This document shows, piece by piece, positions 9,992-20,542 of a stretch of 46,701 bases of DNA. Position numbers and translations under genes: made by a program. The DNA lies in the IMG/VR virus record IMGVR_UViG_3300045988_115807, one strand, 5' to 3'. The notes below the pieces were generated by a model. That model was not told the origin of the DNA, did not search any database, and saw nothing but the letters and a program-made list of their open reading frames with translations. Numbering within the stretch: position 1 is the first letter of the stretch; each line of letters opens with the position of its first letter. This DNA comes from a virus. Its lineage: Duplodnaviria > Heunggongvirae > Uroviricota > Caudoviricetes.

Positions 9992-12900
9992 ATGGGTAAA
10001 GGCAGCAGTAAGGGGCATACCCCGCGCGAAGCGAAGGATAACCTGAAATCCACGCAGTTACTGAGCGTGATTGATGCGATCAGTGAAGGGCCGATTGAAG
10101 GTCCGGTGGATGGATTAAAAAGCGTGCTGCTGAACAGTACGCCGGTGCTGGACAGTGAGGGGAATACCAATATATCCGGCGTCACGGTGGTGTTCCGGGC
10201 AGGTGAGCAGGAGCAGACACCGCCGGAGGGATTTGAATCCTCCGGCTCCGAGACGGTGCTGGGTACGGAAGTGAAGTACGACACGCCGATTACCCGGACC
10301 ATCACGTCTGCAAACATCGACCGTCTGCGCTTTACCTTCGGTGTGCAGGCACTGGTGGAAACCACCTCAAAGGGTGACAGGAATCCGTCGGAAGTCCGTC
10401 TGCTGGTTCAGATACAGCGTAATGGTGGCTGGGTGACGGAAAAAGACATCACCATTAAGGGCAAAACCACCTCGCAGTATCTGGCCTCGGTGGTGGTGGG
10501 TAACCTGCCGCCGCGCCCGTTTAATATCCGGATGCGCAGAATGACGCCGGACAGCACCACAGACCAGCTGCAGAACAAAACGCTCTGGTCGTCATACACC
10601 GAAATCATCGATGTGAAACAGTGCTACCCGAACACGGCACTGGTCGGCGTGCAGGTGGATTCGGAGCAGTTCGGCAGCCAGCAGGTGAGCCGTAATTATC
10701 ATCTTCGCGGGCGCATTCTGCAGGTGCCGTCGAACTATAATCCGCAGACGCGGCAATACAGCGGTATCTGGGACGGGACGTTTAAACCGGCATACAGCAA
10801 CAACATGGCCTGGTGTCTGTGGGATATGCTGACCCATCCGCGCTACGGCATGGGGAAGCGTCTCGGTGCGGCGGATGTGGACAAATGGGCGCTGTATGTC
10901 ATCGGCCAGAATTGCGACCAGTCGGTGCCGGACGGTTTTGGCGGCACGGAGCCGCGCATCACCTGTAACGCTTACCTGACCACACAGCGCAAGGCGTGGG
11001 ATGTGCTCAGTGATTTCTGCTCGGCGATGCGCTGTATGCCGGTATGGAACGGGCAGACGCTGACGTTCGTGCAGGACCGACCGTCGGATAAGGTGTGGAC
11101 CTATAACCGCAGTAATGTGGTGATGCCGGATGATGGCGCGCCGTTCCGCTACAGCTTCAGCGCCCTGAAGGACCGCCATAATGCCGTTGAGGTGAACTGG
11201 ATTGACCCGGATAACGGCTGGGAAACGGCAACAGAGCTTGTGGAGGACACGCAGGCCATTGCCCGTTACGGTCGTAACGTCACGAAGATGGATGCCTTTG
11301 GCTGTACCAGCCGGGGGCAGGCACACCGCGCCGGGCTGTGGCTGATTAAAACGGAACTGCTGGAAACGCAGACCGTGGATTTCAGCGTCGGCGCAGAAGG
11401 GCTTCGCCATGTACCGGGCGATGTTATTGAAATCTGTGATGATGACTATGCCGGTATCAGCACCGGTGGTCGTGTGCTGGCGGTGAACAGCCAGACCCGG
11501 ACGCTGACGCTCGACCGTGAAATCACGCTGCCATCCTCCGGTACCACGCTGATAAGCCTGGTTGACGGAAGTGGCAATCCGGTCAGCGTGGAGGTTCAGT
11601 CCGTCACCGATGGCGTGAAGGTAAAAGTGAGCCGTGTTCCTGATGGCGTTGCCGGATACAGCGTGTGGGGTCTGAAGCTGCCGACGCTGCGCCAGCGACT
11701 GTTCCGCTGCGTGAGTATCCGTGAGAACGACGACGGCACGTATGCCATCACTGCCGTGCAGCATGTACCGGAGAAAGAAGCCATCGTGGATAACGGGGCG
11801 CACTTTGACGGTGACCAGAGCGGCACGGTGAATGGTGTCACGCCGCCAGCAGTGCAGCACCTGACTGCCGAAGTCACCGCAGACAGCGGGGAATATCAGG
11901 TACTGGCGCGATGGGACACGCCGAAGGTGGTGAAGGGGGTGAGCTTTATGCTTCGCCTGACCGTGGCAGCGGATGACGGCAGTGAGCGGCTTGTCAGCAC
12001 AGCCCGGACGACGGAAACCACATACCGCTTCAGGCAACTGGCGCTGGGGCGTTACACGCTGACAGTCCGGGCAGTAAATGCGTGGGGGCAGCAGGGCGAT
12101 CCGGCGTCGGTATCGTTCCGGATTGCCGCACCGTCAGCGCCGTCGCGGATTGAGCTGACTCCGGGCTATTTTCAGATCACCGCCACGCCGCATCTTGCCG
12201 TTTATGACCCGACGGTACAGTTTGAGTTCTGGTTCTCGGAAAAGCGGATTGCGGATATCAGGCAGGTTGAAACCACAGCCCGCTATCTTGGCACGGCGCT
12301 GTACTGGATAGCTGCCAGTATCAATATCAGGCCGGGCCATGATTATTATTTTTACATCCGCAGTGTGAACACCGTTGGCAAATCGGCATTCGTGGAGGCT
12401 GTTGGCCAGCCGAGTGATGATGCATCCGGCTATCTGGATTTTTTCAAAGGAGAGATAGGGAAAACCCATCTGGCTCAGGAGTTGTGGACGCAGATTGATA
12501 ACGGTCAGCTTGCGCCTGACCTGGCGGAAATCAGAACGTCCATCACGGATGTCAGTAATGAAATCACGCAGACCGTCAATAAGAAACTGGAAGACCAGAG
12601 TGCAGCGATCCAGCAGATACAGAAGGTTCAGGTTGATACAAATAATAACCTGAACAGCATGTGGGCTGTGAAGCTGCAGCAGATGCAGGACGGACGCCTT
12701 TATATCGCGGGTATTGGTGCCGGTATTGAAAACACCCCTGACGGCATGCAGAGTCAGGTGCTGCTGGCGGCAGACAGGATTGCGATGATTAATCCTGCGA
12801 ATGGCAACACAAAGCCGATGTTTGTTGGGCAGGGCGATCAGATATACATGAATGAAGTGTTCCTGAAATATCTGACGGCTCCCACCATTACCAGCGGCGG

Positions 12901-13471
12901 TAATCCTCCGGCATTTTCCCTGACACCGGACGGGCGGCTGACGGCGAAAAATGCCGATATCAGCGGTAACGTGAATGCGAACTCCGGGACGCTCAACAAC
13001 GTCACGATTAACGAGAACTGTCGGGTTCTGGGAAAACTGTCCGCCAACCAGATTGAAGGTGATCTCGTTAAAACAGTGGGCAAAGCTTTCCCCCGTGACT
13101 CCCGTGCACCGGAACGGTGGCCATCAGGGACCATTACCGTCAGGGTTTATGACGATCAGCCGTTTGACCGGCAAATTGTTATTCCAGCGGTGGCTTTCAG
13201 CGGTGCCAGACATGAACGGGAGAATAGCGATACTTATTCGTCATGCCGCCTGATAGTGAAGAAAAACGGGGCTGAAATTTATAACCGAACGGCTCTGGAT
13301 AATACTCTGATTTACACGGGTGTTATTGATATGCCTGCAGGCAGTGGCGTAATGACACTGGAGTTTTCGGTATCAGCATGGTGGGTAAATGGCTGGTATC
13401 CCACAGCAAGTATCAGCGATTTGCTGGTTGTGGTGATGAAGAAAGCCACCGCAGGCATCAGTATCAGCTGA
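9992..13471 (+). CDS. J: central tail fibre / host specificity protein J
   Basis: 1159 aa; first ~1000 aa near-identical to lambda J from memory; the C-terminal ~150 aa diverge from the lambda LamB-binding domain. Confidence 0.95.
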
Positions 13472-13538: not shown

Positions 13539-14138
13539 ATGCGTAAATTATGTGCTGTTATTCTGTCCGCAGTAGTCTGGCTGGTTGCCGCTGGTACGCC
13601 AGCGAGCGCAGCAGAGCATCAGTCCACACTAAGCGCCGGGTATCTTCAGGCCCATACTGATATGCCAGGCAGTGATGACCTGAAGGGCATTAACGTGAAA
13701 TACCGTTATGAATTTACGGACACGCTGGGGCTGGTGACGTCATTCAGTTATGCCAATGCCAAAGATGAGCAAAAAACGCATTACAGCGATACCCGCTGGC
13801 ATGAAGATTCAGTGCGTAACCGCTGGTTCAGCATGATGGCGGGGCCATCTGTACGCGTGAATGAATGGTTCAGTGCTTATGCGATGGCAGGTGTGGCTTA
13901 CAGCCGTGTTTCGACGTTCTCCGGGGATTATCTCCGCGTAACTGACAACAAGGGGAAAACGCACGATGTGCTGACCGGAAGTGATGACGATCGCCACAGC
14001 AACACGTCTCTGGCGTGGGGAGCTGGCGTGCAGTTTAACCCGACCGAATCCGTGGCCATTGATATTGCTTATGAAGGCTCCGGCAGTGGCGACTGGCGCA
14101 CTGACGGTTTCATCGTGGGTGTCGGTTATAAGTTCTGA
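13539..14138 (+). CDS. lom: Lom outer-membrane protein (Ail/OmpX family moron)
   Basis: MRKLCAVILSAVVWLVAAGTPASAAEHQSTLSAGYLQ...FIVGVGYKF matches lambda Lom; signal peptide present. Confidence 0.9.
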   Translation: MRKLCAVILSAVVWLVAAGTPASAAEHQSTLSAGYLQAHTDMPGSDDLKGINVKYRYEFTDTLGLVTSFSYANAKDEQKTHYSDTRWHEDSVRNRWFSMMAGPSVRVNEWFSAYAMAGVAYSRVSTFSGDYLRVTDNKGKTHDVLTGSDDDRHSNTSLAWGAGVQFNPTESVAIDIAYEGSGSGDWRTDGFIVGVGYKF

Positions 14139-14164
14139 TTAGCCAGGTAACACAGTGTTATGAC

Positions 14165-14191
14165 AGCCCGCCGGTTCAGGCGGGCTTTTTT
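14165..14191 (+). terminator. rho-independent terminator after lom
   Basis: AGCCCGCCGGTTCAGGCGGGCT hairpin followed by TTTTTT. Confidence 0.65.
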
Positions 14192-14202
14192 GTGGAGTGG
14201 AT

Positions 14203-16581
14203 ATGGCAGCAGTAAAAATCTCAGGTGTGCTGAAAGATGGTGCGGGAAAACCAATACAGAACTGCACTATTCAACTGAAGGCAAAGCGTAACAGCACCAC
14301 GGTACTGGTGAACACGGTGGCCTCTGAAAATCCGGATGAAGCCGGGCGTTACAGCATGGATGTTGAGTATGGTCAGTACAGCGTCACCCTGCTGGTTGAA
14401 GGTTTTCCGCCTTCACATGCCGGGACCATTACCGTCTATGAAGGTTCCAGACCAGGTACGCTGAATGATTTTCTCGGTGCCATGACGGAAGATGATGTCA
14501 TGCCGGAGGCATTGCGTCGTTTTGAGGCAATGGTGGAAGAAGCGGCACGCAACGCCGAAGCCGCCTCTCAGAGCGCAGCGGCGGCAAAGAAATCCGAAAC
14601 TGCAGCGGCTTCATCGAAGAACGCGGCGAAAACCTCAGAAACGAATGCAGCTAACAGCGCACAGGCGGCAGCGTCCTCGCAGACTGCATCGGCAAACTCC
14701 GCGACAGCAGCCAAAAAATCAGAAACCAACGCGAAAAACAGCGAGACAGCCGCAAAGACGAGCGAAACCAACGCGAAGTCCAGCCAGACGGCAGCGAAAA
14801 CCAGCGAAACGAATGCCAAAGCCAGTGAAACTGCCGCGAAAAATAGCCAGAATGCAGCAGCCGAAAGCGAGAGCGCGGCAGCCGGTTCTGCGACTTCAGC
14901 AGCTGGATCAGCAACTGCTGCGGCTAACAGCCAGAAAGCTGCGAAGACGAGTGAAACTAACTCAAAGTCCAGCCAGACGGCAGCGAAGACCAGCGAAACG
15001 AATGCCAAAGCCAGCGAAACTGCGGCGAAAAACAGTCAGGATGCAGCAGCCGAAAGCGAGAGTGCTGCAGCTGGCTCTGCAAGCGCGGCGGCTGCTTCTG
15101 CCACTGCATCAGCCAACAGTCAAAAAGCTGCAAAAACCAGTGAAACCAACGCAAAGGCGAGCGAGACTGCGGCGGCTAACTCGGCGAAAGCATCCGCAGC
15201 AAGCCAGACGGCTGCAAAAGCAAGTGAAGACGCAGCCAGAGAGTATGCAAGCCAGGCTGCGGAGCCGTATAAACAAGTTTTGCAGCCGCTTCCCGATGTG
15301 TGGATACCGTTTAACGATTCACTGGATATGATTACGGGCTTTTCGCCGTCATATAAAAAGATTGTTATTGGTGATGATGAAATAACGATGCCTGGCGATA
15401 AGGTTGTAAAGTTTAAACGCGCATCGAAAGCAACCTATATTAATAAATCTGGTGTGCTGACAGAGGCTGCCATTGACGAGCCACGATTTGAACGTGATGG
15501 CCTGCTTATTGAGGGGCAAAGAACAAACTACATGCTCAATTCGGAAAACCCTGCCAGTTGGGGGCGATCGTCAAATATGGATGTTCCCGAAACCGGGAAG
15601 GATAGTTTTGGTTTTACCTATGGAAAGTTCGTCTGTAACGATTCTCTGATTGGGCAAACCTCAGCCATTAATATGGCATCAATTGCTGCAACAAAGTCAG
15701 TTGATGTCTCAGGCGATAATAAATACGTGACAACCTCATGTCGTTTTAAAACAGAACTGCAGGTAAGGTTGCGTATCCGGTTTGATAAATATGACGGTAG
15801 CGCAACAACTTTTCTTGGTGATGCGTATATTGATACACAAACGCTTGAAATTAATATGACAGGCGGTGCTGCCTCAAGGATTACAGCGAGAGTCAGAAAG
15901 GACGAAGCTACCGGATGGATTTTTGCAGAGGCAACAATTCAGGCAATTGATGGGGAGTTAAAAATAGGTTCTCAGATACAGTATTCTCCTAAGCAGGGCG
16001 GGGCAACCGTATCTGGTGACTATATTTATCTGGCCACCCCACAAGTAGAAAATGGGCCTTGTGTATCATCTTTTATTATATCAGGAACGACGGCGGCGAC
16101 CCGCGCAAGCGATATAGTTACAGTTCCCATTAAGAATAATCTTTATAATCTTCCTTTTACGGTTCTTTGTGAGGTACATAAGAACTGGTATAAAACGCCA
16201 AATGCAGCGCCGCGTGTTTTTGATACCGGCGGTCATCAAACCGGAGCGGCTATTATTCTTGGGTTCGGATCTTCGGCAGATGGGCCAGACGGATTTCCTT
16301 ATTGCGATATTGGAGGAGCTAACAGACGGGTAAACGAAAACGCATCGCTTGAAAAAATGGTTATGGGGATGCGTGTAAAATCAGATCAGTCTACGTGCTC
16401 AGTAAGTAACGGGCGCATATCCAGCGAAAAAAAGACTACGTGGTCCTATATTCAGAACTCTGCAACCATCCGTATTGGAGGCCAGACTACAGCAGGGTTA
16501 CGTCATTTATTTGGTCATATCAGGAATTTCAGAATATGGCACAAGGCATTGACTGATGCTCAGGTGGGGGAGTCAATCTAA
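14203..16581 (+). CDS. stf: side tail fibre protein (lambda Stf-like N-terminus, Ala/Ser/Thr-rich repeat shaft, divergent C-terminal domain)
   Basis: MAAVKISGVLKDGAGKPIQNCTIQLKAKRNSTTVLVNTVASENPDEAGRYSMDVEYGQYSVTLLVEGFPPSHAGTITVYEG... matches the lambda Stf N-terminus; ATG at 14203 preferred over the GTG at 14197 used by the ORF track. Confidence 0.85.
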   Translation: MAAVKISGVLKDGAGKPIQNCTIQLKAKRNSTTVLVNTVASENPDEAGRYSMDVEYGQYSVTLLVEGFPPSHAGTITVYEGSRPGTLNDFLGAMTEDDVMPEALRRFEAMVEEAARNAEAASQSAAAAKKSETAAASSKNAAKTSETNAANSAQAAASSQTASANSATAAKKSETNAKNSETAAKTSETNAKSSQTAAKTSETNAKASETAAKNSQNAAAESESAAAGSATSAAGSATAAANSQKAAKTSETNSKSSQTAAKTSETNAKASETAAKNSQDAAAESESAAAGSASAAAASATASANSQKAAKTSETNAKASETAAANSAKASAASQTAAKASEDAAREYASQAAEPYKQVLQPLPDVWIPFNDSLDMITGFSPSYKKIVIGDDEITMPGDKVVKFKRASKATYINKSGVLTEAAIDEPRFERDGLLIEGQRTNYMLNSENPASWGRSSNMDVPETGKDSFGFTYGKFVCNDSLIGQTSAINMASIAATKSVDVSGDNKYVTTSCRFKTELQVRLRIRFDKYDGSATTFLGDAYIDTQTLEINMTGGAASRITARVRKDEATGWIFAEATIQAIDGELKIGSQIQYSPKQGGATVSGDYIYLATPQVENGPCVSSFIISGTTAATRASDIVTVPIKNNLYNLPFTVLCEVHKNWYKTPNAAPRVFDTGGHQTGAAIILGFGSSADGPDGFPYCDIGGANRRVNENASLEKMVMGMRVKSDQSTCSVSNGRISSEKKTTWSYIQNSATIRIGGQTTAGLRHLFGHIRNFRIWHKALTDAQVGESI
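14755..15132. repeat. 189-bp (63-codon) tandem duplication inside stf, built from 21-bp heptad-like subrepeats
   Basis: Protein segment KTSETNAKSSQTAAKTSETNAKASETAAKNSQNAAAESESAAAGSA... recurs 63 aa later; DNA copies begin at 14755 and 14944. Low-complexity shadow ORFs on both strands confirm the periodicity. Confidence 0.8.
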
Positions 16582-16862
16582 TGAAAGATTTAACACTCAA
16601 ATTTGCCGACAGGGCCGACTTTTCGGCCTTTATGGAGAGTGCTGGCTATTATGATGACGAGTCGATGCAGGATGATATTCTTATTGACGTGATAGGTAAC
16701 GTGTACAAAGAAACCGGAGAACTTACTGAAGATGGCGAGCCGGTATGTGTTAAGGAAGACGGATATTTTGTAAACGTGCGCATCATTAATGATGTGAAAA
16801 CACCGTCAATATTCGATGAATACGTGGTTGCTGTTGAGCATCAACTTCGTGGCTGGATGTGA
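16581..16862 (+). CDS. hypothetical protein (93 aa) downstream of stf
   Basis: ORF with start overlapping the stf stop (TAATG); acidic; no recognisable motif. Confidence 0.5.
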   Translation: MKDLTLKFADRADFSAFMESAGYYDDESMQDDILIDVIGNVYKETGELTEDGEPVCVKEDGYFVNVRIINDVKTPSIFDEYVVAVEHQLRGWM

Positions 16863-16871
16863 GGAAGAATA

Positions 16872-17912
16872 ATGGCTACATCGACAGTAATTCCTGATGA
16901 CATCAAAACGCTAAAATCCGATGTTAGCAAATTAAAAAACGATCAAGGAAGCTACGTAACAAAATCATATGTAGACAGCAAAAATGAAACCGTTGGTGAC
17001 TGGTCTGCTTCATGGTATCAGCAGGTATTGCCAACTAGCGGAGCTATATTTGGGAGAAAACTCCGCTCAACTCACAGGACGGCAGGTGTTGAGGATGCAT
17101 ATTGCGAACTATACCTCAAAAAATGGATAGACAGTCCAGGTAACGCAATGGCGCGCCTTAACCTGAACGATAACGGGACAAACATTTGCTGGGACTTTAC
17201 CAACCTTTATGGCGGTACGATGATTTTTCCCGGTGACAGCGGATACCTCAAAATGGGTAACTGCCTTATGTCATACAGCAAGCGTGGAAGTAACGCGCTT
17301 ATTAAATTTGATTACACCGACACATTACAGATCAAATATGCCAATCATGGGTCAACCATGACATTAAACACACAGGGAACCGCTTATGCTGGTGTTACTG
17401 CTCAATTGTGGGGCAACTCCAGCCGTCCTGTTGTTTATGAAGTCGGTGTTGATGGTGGCGCTTATATGTTCTATGCGCAGAAAACTACCAGCAATACCTA
17501 CGAATTAACGGTTAACGGCGCGTGCAATGCAAGTGCATTTAATCAAGGCTCTGACCGGGATCTGAAAGACAATATTCAGGTGATCGATAATGCAACCGAC
17601 CGCATCCGTAAAATGAACGGCTATACATACACGCTTAAAGAAAACGGTATGCCCTATGCTGGTGTCATTGCACAGGAAGCTCTGGAAGCAATCCCAGAAG
17701 TTGTAGGTTCCGCAATGAAATATCAGGACGGTGCAAGCGGATCGGAAGGTGAAGAAGGTGAACGTTATTACACAGTAGATTATTCTGGTGTTACTGGCTT
17801 GCTTGTTCAGGTAGCCAGAGAGTCAGACGACAGAATAACAGCACTGGAAGAAGAAAACGCAGAATTAAGACAAAGATTATCTGCAATTGAGGCGGCGCTT
17901 GCGTCTAAATAA
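16872..17912 (+). CDS. tail fibre protein with C-terminal intramolecular chaperone (peptidase S74-like) domain
   Basis: GAGGAAG RBS; C-terminal region ...NQGSDRDLKDNIQVIDNATDRIRKMNGYTYTLKENG...YAGVIAQEALEAIPEVV...YYTVDYSGVTGLL...ITALEEENAELRQRL resembles the self-cleaving chaperone domain of endosialidase/T5-type fibres. Confidence 0.7.
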   Translation: MATSTVIPDDIKTLKSDVSKLKNDQGSYVTKSYVDSKNETVGDWSASWYQQVLPTSGAIFGRKLRSTHRTAGVEDAYCELYLKKWIDSPGNAMARLNLNDNGTNICWDFTNLYGGTMIFPGDSGYLKMGNCLMSYSKRGSNALIKFDYTDTLQIKYANHGSTMTLNTQGTAYAGVTAQLWGNSSRPVVYEVGVDGGAYMFYAQKTTSNTYELTVNGACNASAFNQGSDRDLKDNIQVIDNATDRIRKMNGYTYTLKENGMPYAGVIAQEALEAIPEVVGSAMKYQDGASGSEGEEGERYYTVDYSGVTGLLVQVARESDDRITALEEENAELRQRLSAIEAALASK

Positions 17913-17917
17913 TATCA

Positions 17918-17940
17918 AGGGGCCGAGCGCCCCGTTTTAT
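17918..17940 (+). terminator. terminator after tail fibre gene
   Basis: GGGGCCGAGCGCCCC hairpin followed by GTTTTATT. Confidence 0.55.
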
Positions 17941-17954
17941 TGGGTAGGATGAAA

Positions 17955-18248
17955 ATGGATATAACACCTTTCCTTCATGCACTTTGTGCTGTGGCTGCGC
18001 AGGTACTGATTGGCCTTTTTACCGGAAACTGGGTTTACGGTGCGATAGCTGGTTGTACGTTCTTCATTGCGCGGGAACACACCCAGGCAGAATATCGCTG
18101 GATTGAAATGTTCGGGCATGGCAAGCGAATGAATATGCCGTGGTGGGGCGGTTTTGATCCGCGCGCGTGGGATGTGGCAAGCCTTATGGATTTTGCTGTA
18201 CCGATGGTGGCGTGTCTGCTGGTCTGGCTGTTGGTTTATCGTGGGTGA
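17955..18248 (+). CDS. hypothetical membrane protein
   Basis: ORF 17940-18248; ATG at 17955 with AGGA upstream; two hydrophobic segments (AVAAQVLIGLFTG, AVPMVACLLVWLLV). Confidence 0.45.
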   Translation: MDITPFLHALCAVAAQVLIGLFTGNWVYGAIAGCTFFIAREHTQAEYRWIEMFGHGKRMNMPWWGGFDPRAWDVASLMDFAVPMVACLLVWLLVYRG

Positions 18249-18382
18249 AAAAAGGTGAGCTGTATATGCAACGGAGGAAGAAACCCCGTTGCTGGAAGCC
18301 TGGAAAAAGTATCGGGTGTTGTTGAATCGTGTTGATACATCACTATCTCCAGATATCGAGTGGCCAAGTCAACCATAAATCA

Positions 18383-18407
18383 ATATCCCCTGCGATGCAG
18401 GGGATAT
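18383..18407. terminator. bidirectional hairpin between the tail-fibre region and the sopB 3' end
   Basis: ATATCCCCTGCGATGCAGGGGATAT perfect stem-loop followed by TTCTT. Confidence 0.5.
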
Positions 18408-18410
18408 TTC

Positions 18411-19376
18411 TTAATTATCAGTAGATTGTTCCTCTAGTAACAACTCAATTCTGCTTAGTATTTCTTTAGATATTTTTCGGCTATCAATTTTTATAGTTAC
18501 AAAATTACCTTTATATCTAGCCGTGATCCCTTCCCCATATTTTTTCTCGTCTTTTGTTTTTTCCTCGTCGCCAACCAGAACAGAGTCAGATAATATTTGT
18601 ATAATCCGTGAAGCTTCTAAATCCTCGCCGTTTTTTTTAATTGCCAGAAGATGATGAGCAGCATTGCTCATGGCAGCCATGTTTTTTTTGTAGACCTTAA
18701 ACAAAGAATCTCCAGCACGAGCTGACAGTTCTCCTGGATGATTGAAGATAGCTAATATATCTTTTGGTAGACCAGCTGTATTAATACAGCGAGTGATAAT
18801 ATTTCTGTCTATATTTTCAGCCTCGGCTAATGCTTTAACGTTACCATCAAAGTCATTTAGCTTGCGTAAGTATCTCTTTCCTCTTTCGTATGCACTAATA
18901 GGCCTATAATCGTTACCAATTTGGGATAACCAATGCATCTGTTCATCGTCGAGATCACCTATTAAGACGCGATAGTCACATCCTGTTAATATCGCTGCTT
19001 TTCTTCTACGTGAGCCGTCAGCGACTTCAACGACTCCAGACACTTTTCTGGCGAAAGCTGGATTTTGTTGTCCAGACGTTAGAAAAGATGGGATTAAATC
19101 GGCTAGAGAGGATTCATTTAATAAATCTTGATCGCGTTCATTACCTAGCCATACCATTGTTGCCATTTCAACTTTATCTGCGGGAATTGTCTCTAACTTA
19201 AAGTTAACATTACGTCCGCATACTGGCAAAGTTATGCTGTTACCGGTTAATGAACTCAGTTGACGTTTTAAATCACCAACCATAGGTGATACGGGCTGAT
19301 GTTCAGGGGCATGATGATTATTACTCATAATGCGATTAATATCTGGAGCATTTTTTAGAAGAGAGCGCTGTTTCAT
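18411..19376 (-). CDS. sopB: partition protein SopB (ParB-like centromere-binding protein)
   Basis: ...ITLPVCGRNVNFKLE...WLGNERDQDLLNE...LIPSFLTSGQQNPAFARKVSGVVEVADGSRRRKAA...GNDYRPISAYERGKRY... closely parallels F-plasmid SopB from memory. Confidence 0.9.
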   Translation of the reverse strand: MKQRSLLKNAPDINRIMSNNHHAPEHQPVSPMVGDLKRQLSSLTGNSITLPVCGRNVNFKLETIPADKVEMATMVWLGNERDQDLLNESSLADLIPSFLTSGQQNPAFARKVSGVVEVADGSRRRKAAILTGCDYRVLIGDLDDEQMHWLSQIGNDYRPISAYERGKRYLRKLNDFDGNVKALAEAENIDRNIITRCINTAGLPKDILAIFNHPGELSARAGDSLFKVYKKNMAAMSNAAHHLLAIKKNGEDLEASRIIQILSDSVLVGDEEKTKDEKKYGEGITARYKGNFVTIKIDSRKISKEILSRIELLLEEQSTDN

Positions 19377-20542
19377 TATTCGTTCTCCCAGCGAGGTTTT
19401 ATTAGATCATCAAAAATTTCTCGGCAAACAGGGTCCCATATAGAAACAGCATTTCTCCATGCATTCAATGTTGAACGTTGGTTTGCTGCTTGTTCAAATA
19501 CTGTTCTCATTTTTATCTGGCCTTTACCTACTTCATCGGTAACGCGTACAACCTGACGTAATACCATTGATCCCCATGTATTTCTTATTTGTTCTTCCAT
19601 CCATCGTGATTGATTCCCTGTAGTGAGACTATATTTAGTCAGAAGTAAGCGAACGGTTGGCTCAAATCCACCTAGGTCAACGCTTTCCAATAGATCGAGA
19701 AGCATTGTGAAAAACTGTAGAACAGAAGCGTAATCAAATAATTCTGCAGGTGTAGCAACAACAATAACGTCAGCGGCACAAACAACGTTAATGGTTCCTG
19801 TACCGAGGTTCGGAGCACTATCTATAACGATAACATCGTAGTTATCCCAAACTGATTCAATAGCTGCGCGCAGCATAAGGTGTGGAGGATGAGGCAATTT
19901 ACCCTGAGCATGATATTGCATGAGATCTGTTTCTATACGATGTAAAGCTAGGCAGCTAGGGATAATGTCTAGCCCAGGCCAACATGTTGGCTTTATAGCA
20001 TATTCAGCGTTATCGCGTTCTCCTAAGTAAAATGGCAGTAAAGTATCCTCGGCATGGATATGTAAATCAGGAACATAACCGTGATACATAGAGGCCGTGC
20101 CTTGAGGATCGTTACCTTCAACCAAAAGAACACGATGACCTTGTAATGCTAACCATTGAGCTTGATGTACCGCAGACGATGTTTTATAAACGCCGCCTTT
20201 GTGTGACATAACGGCAAGCACAACAGGGTTTTTATCTTGTGGTCGTTGGTTTGGGTTGCCAAAAACTGCTCGCATACTGTTGATTTGATCTATGGTATAA
20301 CCAGCACGACGTTCAATTCTTCCTCTCATTTCAAAGTCAGGTGCAGGTAAACGCCCGCTCTTCTCAGCATCTCTAATTGCTTGAGGAGTTACACCAATTA
20401 AATCTGCTACTTCAGTTATACCCCATCGGCGGGTGATACGCCGAGCTTCAGGACTATCATCACCGAATTGAGCGATAGCAATTGCTTGGGTCATTTCTTG
20501 ACCTCTCGTAACACAATCTTGCAATAACTTTTTCAAAGACAT
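19376..20542 (-). CDS. sopA: partition ATPase SopA (ParA, Walker-type)
   Basis: ...AIAIAQFGDDSPEARRITRRW...HKGGVYKTS...LLVEGNDPQGTASMYHGYVPDLHIHAEDTLLPFYLGE...IDSAPNLG... near-colinear with F SopA from memory. Confidence 0.95.
   Translation of the reverse strand: MSLKKLLQDCVTRGQEMTQAIAIAQFGDDSPEARRITRRWGITEVADLIGVTPQAIRDAEKSGRLPAPDFEMRGRIERRAGYTIDQINSMRAVFGNPNQRPQDKNPVVLAVMSHKGGVYKTSSAVHQAQWLALQGHRVLLVEGNDPQGTASMYHGYVPDLHIHAEDTLLPFYLGERDNAEYAIKPTCWPGLDIIPSCLALHRIETDLMQYHAQGKLPHPPHLMLRAAIESVWDNYDVIVIDSAPNLGTGTINVVCAADVIVVATPAELFDYASVLQFFTMLLDLLESVDLGGFEPTVRLLLTKYSLTTGNQSRWMEEQIRNTWGSMVLRQVVRVTDEVGKGQIKMRTVFEQAANQRSTLNAWRNAVSIWDPVCREIFDDLIKPRWENE

Follow-up and report, generated by a model that had tools for sequence, protein, structure and literature searches.

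What has become of a side tail fibre locus that begins like that of lambda and then departs from it? The window analysed here is the whole 46,701-nucleotide (nt) sequence of the IMG/VR record IMGVR_UViG_3300045988_115807, which is a linear phage-plasmid of the N15 type whose virion module resembles that of lambda, and the locus in question consists of the side tail fibre gene stf and the genes that follow it. From the sequence alone, the original prediction was a host-range module swap in which a lambda-like Stf N-terminus had acquired a tandemly repeated shaft and a new C-terminus, with two other genes in place of tfa. Each predicted element lies where it had been placed, with matches that far exceed chance. 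A module swap almost certainly took place here, and the same holds for the identity of its parts. The product of the locus is likely to be a side tail fibre in two parts, probably branched, in which a mobile "lateral-fibre tip cassette" has been grafted onto a lambda-type Stf anchor.

The left-hand boundary lies within stf (Table 1). Stf contains the PF08400 domain ("Prophage tail fibre N-terminal") with an E-value of 1e-66 (223.5 bits against a cut-off of 26.6), and the window is 84% identical to lambda at the nucleotide level over 14010–14554, from the end of lom to about stf codon 117, near which the lambda-like part stops. The predicted lambda-like N-terminus was thereby confirmed, as was its start. 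The open reading frame (ORF) finder begins the gene at GTG 14197, but we prefer ATG 14203 because it is preceded, five bases upstream, by the ribosome-binding site GGAG (14193–14196) and because the relatives begin with MAAVKISG. In BLASTP comparisons with lambda orf-401, orf-314 and tfa there was no match past Stf amino acid (aa) 346. The C-terminal 439 aa are unrelated to lambda Stf (its orf-314 part), in line with the predicted foreign portion of about 450 aa. Downstream of stf we did not find an intact tfa, only a 37-codon remnant of its 3′ end, which the NCBI pipeline annotates as a truncated tfa pseudogene in relatives. Sequence comparison supports a role of this remnant as a recombination scar, and the replaced segment accordingly begins within the stf shaft and reaches close to the tfa 3′ end. 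The place of tfa is occupied, as predicted, by genes for a 93-aa and a 346-aa protein (orf93 and orf346). The opposite outcome, an ordinary lambda stf C-terminus with tfa behind it, was checked by alignment to lambda and did not occur.

The foreign segment is found in very different phages. The whole cassette is about 96% identical at the nucleotide level in the lambdoid phages 2G7b, Tritos, HannyBb and PhiR63_1, and window positions 15283–17840, which run from the shaft end into orf346, share 96% identity with the virulent Nonagvirus vB_EcoS_ESCO3. The same C-terminus is joined to non-lambda N-termini in the protein P0152 and in the fibres of tuinn, KarlBarth, IrisVonRoten and JeffSchatz. Among 5,426 complete Escherichia coli genomes, 373 contain the cassette at a coverage of at least 80%, mostly in chromosomal prophages. 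The arrangement is thus common and has been deposited many times; it is a known kind of cassette.

Between the lambda-type anchor and the foreign end, Stf forms a shaft in which one core position is occupied by Ala in 30 of 34 heptads and the other by Ser in 32 of 33. It is presumably a trimeric coiled coil packed through small residues and about 35 nm long. The shaft passes into a neck that is 80–89% conserved among eight E. coli prophage alleles and shows 40–97% identity across six phage groups. The globular end of roughly 350 aa that follows matches NF048003 (NCBIfam, "GTA head spike fibre") over window positions 15505–16107 (Stf aa 437–637) with an E-value of 1e-13 (52.1 bits against the curated cut-off of 36), and the hypervariable block lies inside this match. 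It also matches the chain of RcGTA Rcc01080 in PDB 6tb9 (E-value 4.5e-7), and a weak, sub-threshold match to Laminin_G_3, a concanavalin A-like family, covers the last 50 residues (16414–16566). The lectin-like end expected from the original prediction was therefore recovered by the domain search. The Stf end is homologous to the capsule-binding head-spike fibre of RcGTA and to the "galectin-like" end of the proximal lateral fibre of IrisVonRoten. Rcc01080 binds capsular polysaccharide (PMC7296036, PMC10218006). Among the same eight alleles, the variable block in the second half of the end is 37–49% conserved and the C-terminal strands (aa 759–792) about 79%; the conserved C-end reads IRIGGQ..G.RHLFGHIRNFRIWHK.LTD. 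This pattern of variability is as expected of a receptor-binding domain on a conserved scaffold. The database homologues listed for the Stf end are all at least 96% identical. A glycan is the somewhat favoured candidate for the receptor of this end.

The second putative fibre component is encoded by orf346. A self-cleaving, chaperone-like domain starting at SDRDLK had been predicted at its C-terminus, and PF13884 (Peptidase_S74) indeed matches aa 227–278 with an E-value of 4.8e-14 (52.8 bits against a cut-off of 22); Stf has no match to PF13884. Ser227 and Lys232 (S-x4-K) are nearly invariant in 16 homologues and align with SDRRIK of S16 gp37 (PDB 6f45). Since they stand at the start of the S74 domain, the protein is predicted to cleave itself there, leaving a mature part of 226 aa. 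Alleles of orf346 range from 96% down to 40% identity. The first ~27 residues, residues 115–226 and the chaperone domain are conserved, and variation is found in the number of short coiled-coil repeats and in residues ~36–110. A motif of about 20 aa at the N-terminus, M-x-T-x-T-x-I-P-x-D-I-x-x-L-K, is common to otherwise unrelated distal fibres; it was found in orf346 and in the distal fibres of ESCO3, tuinn, KarlBarth, IrisVonRoten and VogelGryff. The domain search of the locus proteins found neither PF08400 nor any other anchor domain in orf346, so that Stf is the sole carrier of PF08400.

In the IMG/VR loci, Stf-end alleles (39–100% identity) assort independently of the distal-fibre alleles. 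The latter are of the orf346 type, of a variant with a 52% identical N-terminal part, or of an alternative S74 fibre of 229–234 aa, while the shaft, the neck, orf93, the distal N-terminal peptide and a downstream membrane-protein gene are conserved around them. The alternative fibre (5292–~5990 in L034, L036, L027 and others) has only its first ~27 residues in common with orf346, and its S74-like domain starts at SSIRYK, which would leave a mature protein of only ~113 aa. In the locus of the T1-like phage tuinn (L088, 4292–5029), the distal fibre gene is seemingly split into a 166-aa ORF and a 45-aa ORF in which the chaperone helix ends; a frameshift, a sequencing error or decay may be responsible.

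Between the two fibre genes lies orf93. A total of 181 deposited phage genomes contain an orf93 homologue, and 219 phage records contain the fibre end; orf93 carriers include lambda-like phages (phage 21, 4A7, ev017), Drexlerviridae, Dhillonvirus, Queuovirinae, T5-like Markadamsvirinae and rV5-like myoviruses. These diverse contexts come from the annotated phage collection, whereas the IMG/VR scan with an orf93 alignment recovered only close relatives (at least 91% identity). Adjacency was assessed gene by gene in nine loci and from about ten pairs of listed coordinates. The fibre end is directly followed by orf93 in all nine loci, which represent six phage groups, whatever the fibre N-terminus, and the coordinates of the two abut in every listed pair that was cross-checked. 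In lambda-like, T1-like, Dhillonvirus, Queuovirinae, T5-like and rV5-like coliphages, orf93 is coupled to the fibre gene through a stop/start overlap. In phage 21 and ev243 the fibre end is accompanied by orf93 but not by a distal fibre. This makes orf93 the constant partner of the new end and the S74 fibre an optional third component.

The orf93 protein is confidently predicted to fold into a small alpha/beta sandwich (predicted local distance difference test score, pLDDT, 87), and neither structure nor sequence searches returned an informative relative; a profile search of the PDB gave nothing below an E-value of 0.1. Weak matches in the giant proteins P0394, P0399 and P0402, which are adhesins with immunoglobulin-like repeats, were judged to be spurious matches to strand motifs and rejected. 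Comparison with lambda Tfa by hhalign showed no profile similarity; we infer that orf93 replaces Tfa functionally, though unrelated to it. We give roughly even odds to its being an accessory of the lectin-type fibre end, whether as an assembly factor or as the connector for a branching second fibre. If so, orf93 would be needed wherever the lectin-tipped end is transplanted. The fibre end also occurs at 36–38% identity in the T5-like phages AKFV33, phiAPCEc03, SP15, Lindwurm and FFH_1, none of which is among the orf93 matches listed. Several records labelled as Campylobacter or Listeria phages contain these coliphage fibre genes. They are either rV5-like genomes of 135–140 kb or fragments of 1.6–7.5 kb and look like mislabelled or contaminant entries.

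How might these parts work together? We propose that three Stf chains would assemble into a coiled-coil rod of ~35 nm, anchored by the lambda N-domain, to which each 63-aa unit would add ~9.4 nm. Reversible binding of a surface glycan, either O-antigen or capsule, would fall to the three lectin-like ends. The orf346 protein would trimerise with the help of its chaperone domain and cleave itself before Ser227, and the mature 226-aa product would use its N-terminal peptide to dock on the neck of Stf, or else on orf93, and would contribute a second specificity. The role of assembly factor or connector would go to orf93. A two-part fibre with docking of this kind is, in our judgement, fairly likely. 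Several points weigh against the proposal. The contact between orf346 and Stf is putative, and an AlphaFold2 model of the orf346 monomer (from a 16-sequence alignment) was unusable, with a pLDDT of 50.8, and was left out of the fold search. Some Stf proteins bind the lipopolysaccharide core or porins and not O-antigen (PMC12312913). The absence of a distal fibre from phage 21 and ev243 also means that orf93 cannot be solely a connector.

The same absence bears on the alternative that orf346 is a separate short fibre, which would either sit on the tail tip without involvement of Stf or be unattached, so that the locus would encode two unconnected adhesins. This view fits phage 21 and ev243, for which the Stf end alone suffices, and the independent assortment of Stf-end and distal-fibre alleles. 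However, a free-standing fibre would have to do without PF08400 or another anchor domain. Moreover, the N-terminal motif of orf346 is kept in T5-like, T1-like, Dhillonvirus, Queuovirinae and lambda-like phages, whose tails are unrelated and in which its sole common neighbours are the Stf-type end and orf93, and a published multimer model places a homologous distal fibre on the proximal one. We regard a separate fibre as unlikely. Less probable still is that orf346 is no structural adhesin at all and serves Stf as a chaperone in trans. Its gene sits where tfa would be, and homologues are annotated as "endosialidase chaperone" and "putative lateral tail fiber chaperone" in ESCO3 and VogelGryff. 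S74 domains, however, act in cis on their own upstream chain, as in endosialidase and T5 pb1; orf346 has such a chain, a 226-aa N-terminal part with the allele-variable blocks typical of receptor-binding proteins, and Stf ends of the same type occur without orf346.

A different doubt concerns the shaft. Tandem repeats are a classic site of assembly errors, and the 189-bp repeat might be a recent duplication or an assembly artefact without functional meaning. The tandem 63-codon unit is present where it had been predicted: Tandem Repeats Finder (TRF) reports a period of 189 with 82% matches and a score of 582, and self-identity at an offset of 189 is 81.5%, compared with 46–60% at all other multiples of 21. 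A sub-period of 21 nt, one heptad, underlies the 189-nt repeat. The two full units are 83.6% identical in nucleotides and identical in 57 of 63 aa, with 20 synonymous and 6 non-synonymous codon differences. With 16% divergence between the copies, most of it synonymous, the duplication is old and under purifying selection, not fresh.

The repeat was also predicted to be prone to length variation, which was borne out at the population level. Counting repeat units by motif proved unreliable and was replaced by measuring the shaft between fixed anchors in alleles that share both ends. Natural shafts are 109, 130, 172, 186, 201, 228, 235 (modal) and 298 aa long and correspond to one, two or three 63-aa units plus further deletions. 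With one exception the differences are multiples of seven residues; offsets from the modal shaft include −126, −63, −7 and +63 aa. Full-length Stf proteins with the same ends cluster accordingly at 790–791, 727–728 (exactly −63) and 665 aa (−126). Across independent assemblies the two-copy form is the most frequent, being present in 90 of the 111 protein clusters and in 56 of the 60 IMG/VR loci whose shafts could be measured. Only one of these 60 loci, L014 (IMGVR_UViG_2541047862_000009), has the 298-aa shaft with three full units, and the heptad register is kept in both one- and three-copy alleles. An independent IMG/VR contig, 99.9% identical over 9.4 kb covering the fibre locus, has the same repeat structure. 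Set against these observations, a meaningless or artefactual repeat is hardly credible. Overall, the original prediction is supported in a refined form, with old repeat copies, orf93 as the constant partner of the fibre end, and a common arrangement.

Table 1. Features of the side tail fibre locus and its flanks (positions in the 46,701-nt window).
Feature	Position	Strand	Remarks
Terminator-like hairpin with T-run	14165..14186	+	between lom and stf
stf, chimeric side tail fibre gene	14203..16581	+	792 aa; phrog_1419 matched full length
Tail-attachment domain, lambda-type N-terminal	14209..14598	+	PF08400, aa 5–134
Stf shaft	14557..15261	+	presumed coiled coil; 235 aa (residues 119–353); unbroken heptad register T-A-A-K-x-S-E
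Tandem repeat	14737..15174	+	189 bp = 63 codons = nine heptads; 2.3 copies
Full repeat units	14755–14943 and 14944–15132	+	units within the 189-bp repeat
Conserved neck	15262..15531	+	Stf aa 354–443; candidate docking region for the distal fibre
Hypervariable block	15532..16026	+	Stf aa 444–608; 21–50% conserved among eight alleles; presumed glycan-binding surface
Second half of globular end	16027..16578	+	Stf aa 609–792; variable block 684–758 between conserved strands
orf93	16581..16862	+	93 aa; phrog_1361; start overlaps stf stop (TAATG)
orf346	16872–17912	+	346 aa; 9-nt gap after orf93
orf346, predicted mature part	16872..17549	+	aa 1–226; N-terminal peptide MATSTVIPDDIKTLKSDVSKLK, short coiled coil, allele-variable block aa ~36–110, tip domain
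orf346, C-terminal intramolecular chaperone (predicted)	17550..17912	+	aa 227–346; Peptidase_S74; Ser227/Lys232 in SDRDLK; long terminal helix after
Small GC hairpin	17919..17933	+	3′ of orf346
Membrane-protein gene	17955..18248	+	phrog_1443; 97 aa from ATG 17955; ORF finder TTG 17940 (102 aa)
tfa 3′ end remnant	18265..18378	+	37 codons; 88% nt identity to lambda; right-hand scar of the replacement
Terminator-like hairpin, bidirectional	18382..18408	.	12-bp stem; separates fibre region from parB/sopA

Upstream of stf lie J (9992–13471) and then lom (13539–14138). J is 83% identical to lambda J along its full length (1159 aa versus 1132). The fibre region is directly followed, on the opposite strand, by parB (18411–19376) and sopA (19376–20542), with a protelomerase beyond sopA and, in matching records, a CyRepA1-type replication gene (to ~42000). 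The nearest records are Escherichia albertii plasmids (98%) and, for the non-structural half, the phages PhiR46_1 (98.5%) and YDC107_1. An invertible fibre-switch segment was sought: apart from the terminator hairpin, inverted repeats at the locus are short and weak, and no invertase gene adjoins it.

The phrog_1443 protein, encoded between orf346 and the tfa remnant, has two predicted transmembrane segments (two transmembrane domains are annotated in phage 21). It is 91–100% conserved 3′ of the fibre genes in lambda-like carriers, including phage 21 and ev243, whereas the Nonagvirus ESCO3 lacks its gene. A role as a moron or exclusion factor is possible. Comparison of four loci (L001, L004, L087 and L091) shows the tfa remnant as a recurrent junction with varying 3′ neighbours. 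These are a plasmid partition module here, genes for an S-adenosylmethionine (SAM) methyltransferase, an alpha/beta hydrolase and OmpT in 2G7b and ev243, and sitABCD in a chromosomal prophage and phage 21.

The cassette is common and current understanding is unchanged. Of mild interest are the near-identity of the version in temperate lambda/N15-like elements and that in a virulent Nonagvirus, the shaft polymorphism in whole heptads and the small partner protein orf93. Side-fibre modules decide the reach of a temperate phage or an N15-like phage-plasmid across O-antigens and capsules, so that recognising the cassette helps to predict host range from sequence. The natural splice sites for such fibres lie within the heptad shaft, at the neck and at the 3′ end of tfa. 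Together with the genes that travel jointly, namely the fibre end and orf93, to which the S74 fibre may be added, they offer practical guidance for retargeting lambda-based delivery particles. The length polymorphism, heptad-exact with one exception and in steps of ~9 nm, would be a simple natural knob for fibre reach.

Compared with known systems, the locus resembles lambda (Ur-lambda) Stf/Tfa in its N-terminal attachment domain, its Ala/Ser-rich shaft and its position downstream of J and lom, but differs in its unrelated C-terminal 439 aa, the lack of Tfa and the additional genes orf93 and orf346. Rcc01080 of RcGTA is a monomeric head decoration with an N-terminal Leu-Gly repeat anchor, whereas the homologous part in the window is the end of a presumably trimeric tail fibre. 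Phage 21 and ev243 share with the window the fibre end (62–70% identity in the globular part), an orf93 homologue and the small membrane protein; they lack the S74 distal fibre, and their fibre genes are followed by cargo genes rather than by the plasmid partition genes of the window.

LtfA and LtfB of the T5-like phages DT57C and DT571/2 are similar in architecture: there are two fibre proteins, each with a receptor-binding region. A tail anchor is confined to the first, the second docks through a short conserved segment at its N-terminus, and both recognise O-antigens (PMC4728585). The window shows the same division, with PF08400 in Stf only and a conserved N-terminal motif in orf346. The second protein ends in an S74 chaperone in both systems. 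In DT57C the first protein has an S74 domain too, whereas in the window the proximal fibre has a lectin-like globular end without S74, and orf93 lies between the fibres. AKFV33, one of the T5-like phages with a related fibre end, is cited together with DT57C among phages that possess two ltf genes, and a relationship between the two branched-fibre systems is therefore possible.

The neck and lectin-like end (...RHLFGH.RNFR.WHK.LTD) are 44–97% identical to those of nine loci from six phage groups, and Stf is 69% identical to the lateral fibre of VogelGryff. A detailed counterpart is found in the T5-like phage IrisVonRoten (Bas32), whose gp22, gp23 and gp24 have the same order and spacing as the three genes of the window, with a stop/start overlap and a 9-nt gap. 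Stf aa 131–792 are 52.6% identical to Gp22, including its "galectin-like" end, and orf93 is 38% identical to Gp23. The N-termini of the distal proteins are MVTKTVIPTDITKLK in Gp24 and MATSTVIPDDIKTLK in orf346, and both proteins end in an S74 chaperone. The differences lie in the anchor, which is a T5-type N-terminus in IrisVonRoten and the lambda PF08400 domain in the window; in the distal fibre, where the 346-aa orf346 protein lacks the Gp12-like first receptor-binding domain of the T-shaped, 574-aa Gp24; and in the element itself, a temperate phage-plasmid unlike IrisVonRoten. The lateral fibres of IrisVonRoten recognise the O16 O-antigen (PMC8594841). In the BASEL preprint (10.1101/2024.09.12.612763), the small protein Gp23 receives no discussion, the galectin-like domain at the C-terminus of Gp22 is described as a possible extra receptor-binding domain, and in a multimer model (Fig. 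12B) the proximal Gp22 carries the distal Gp24.

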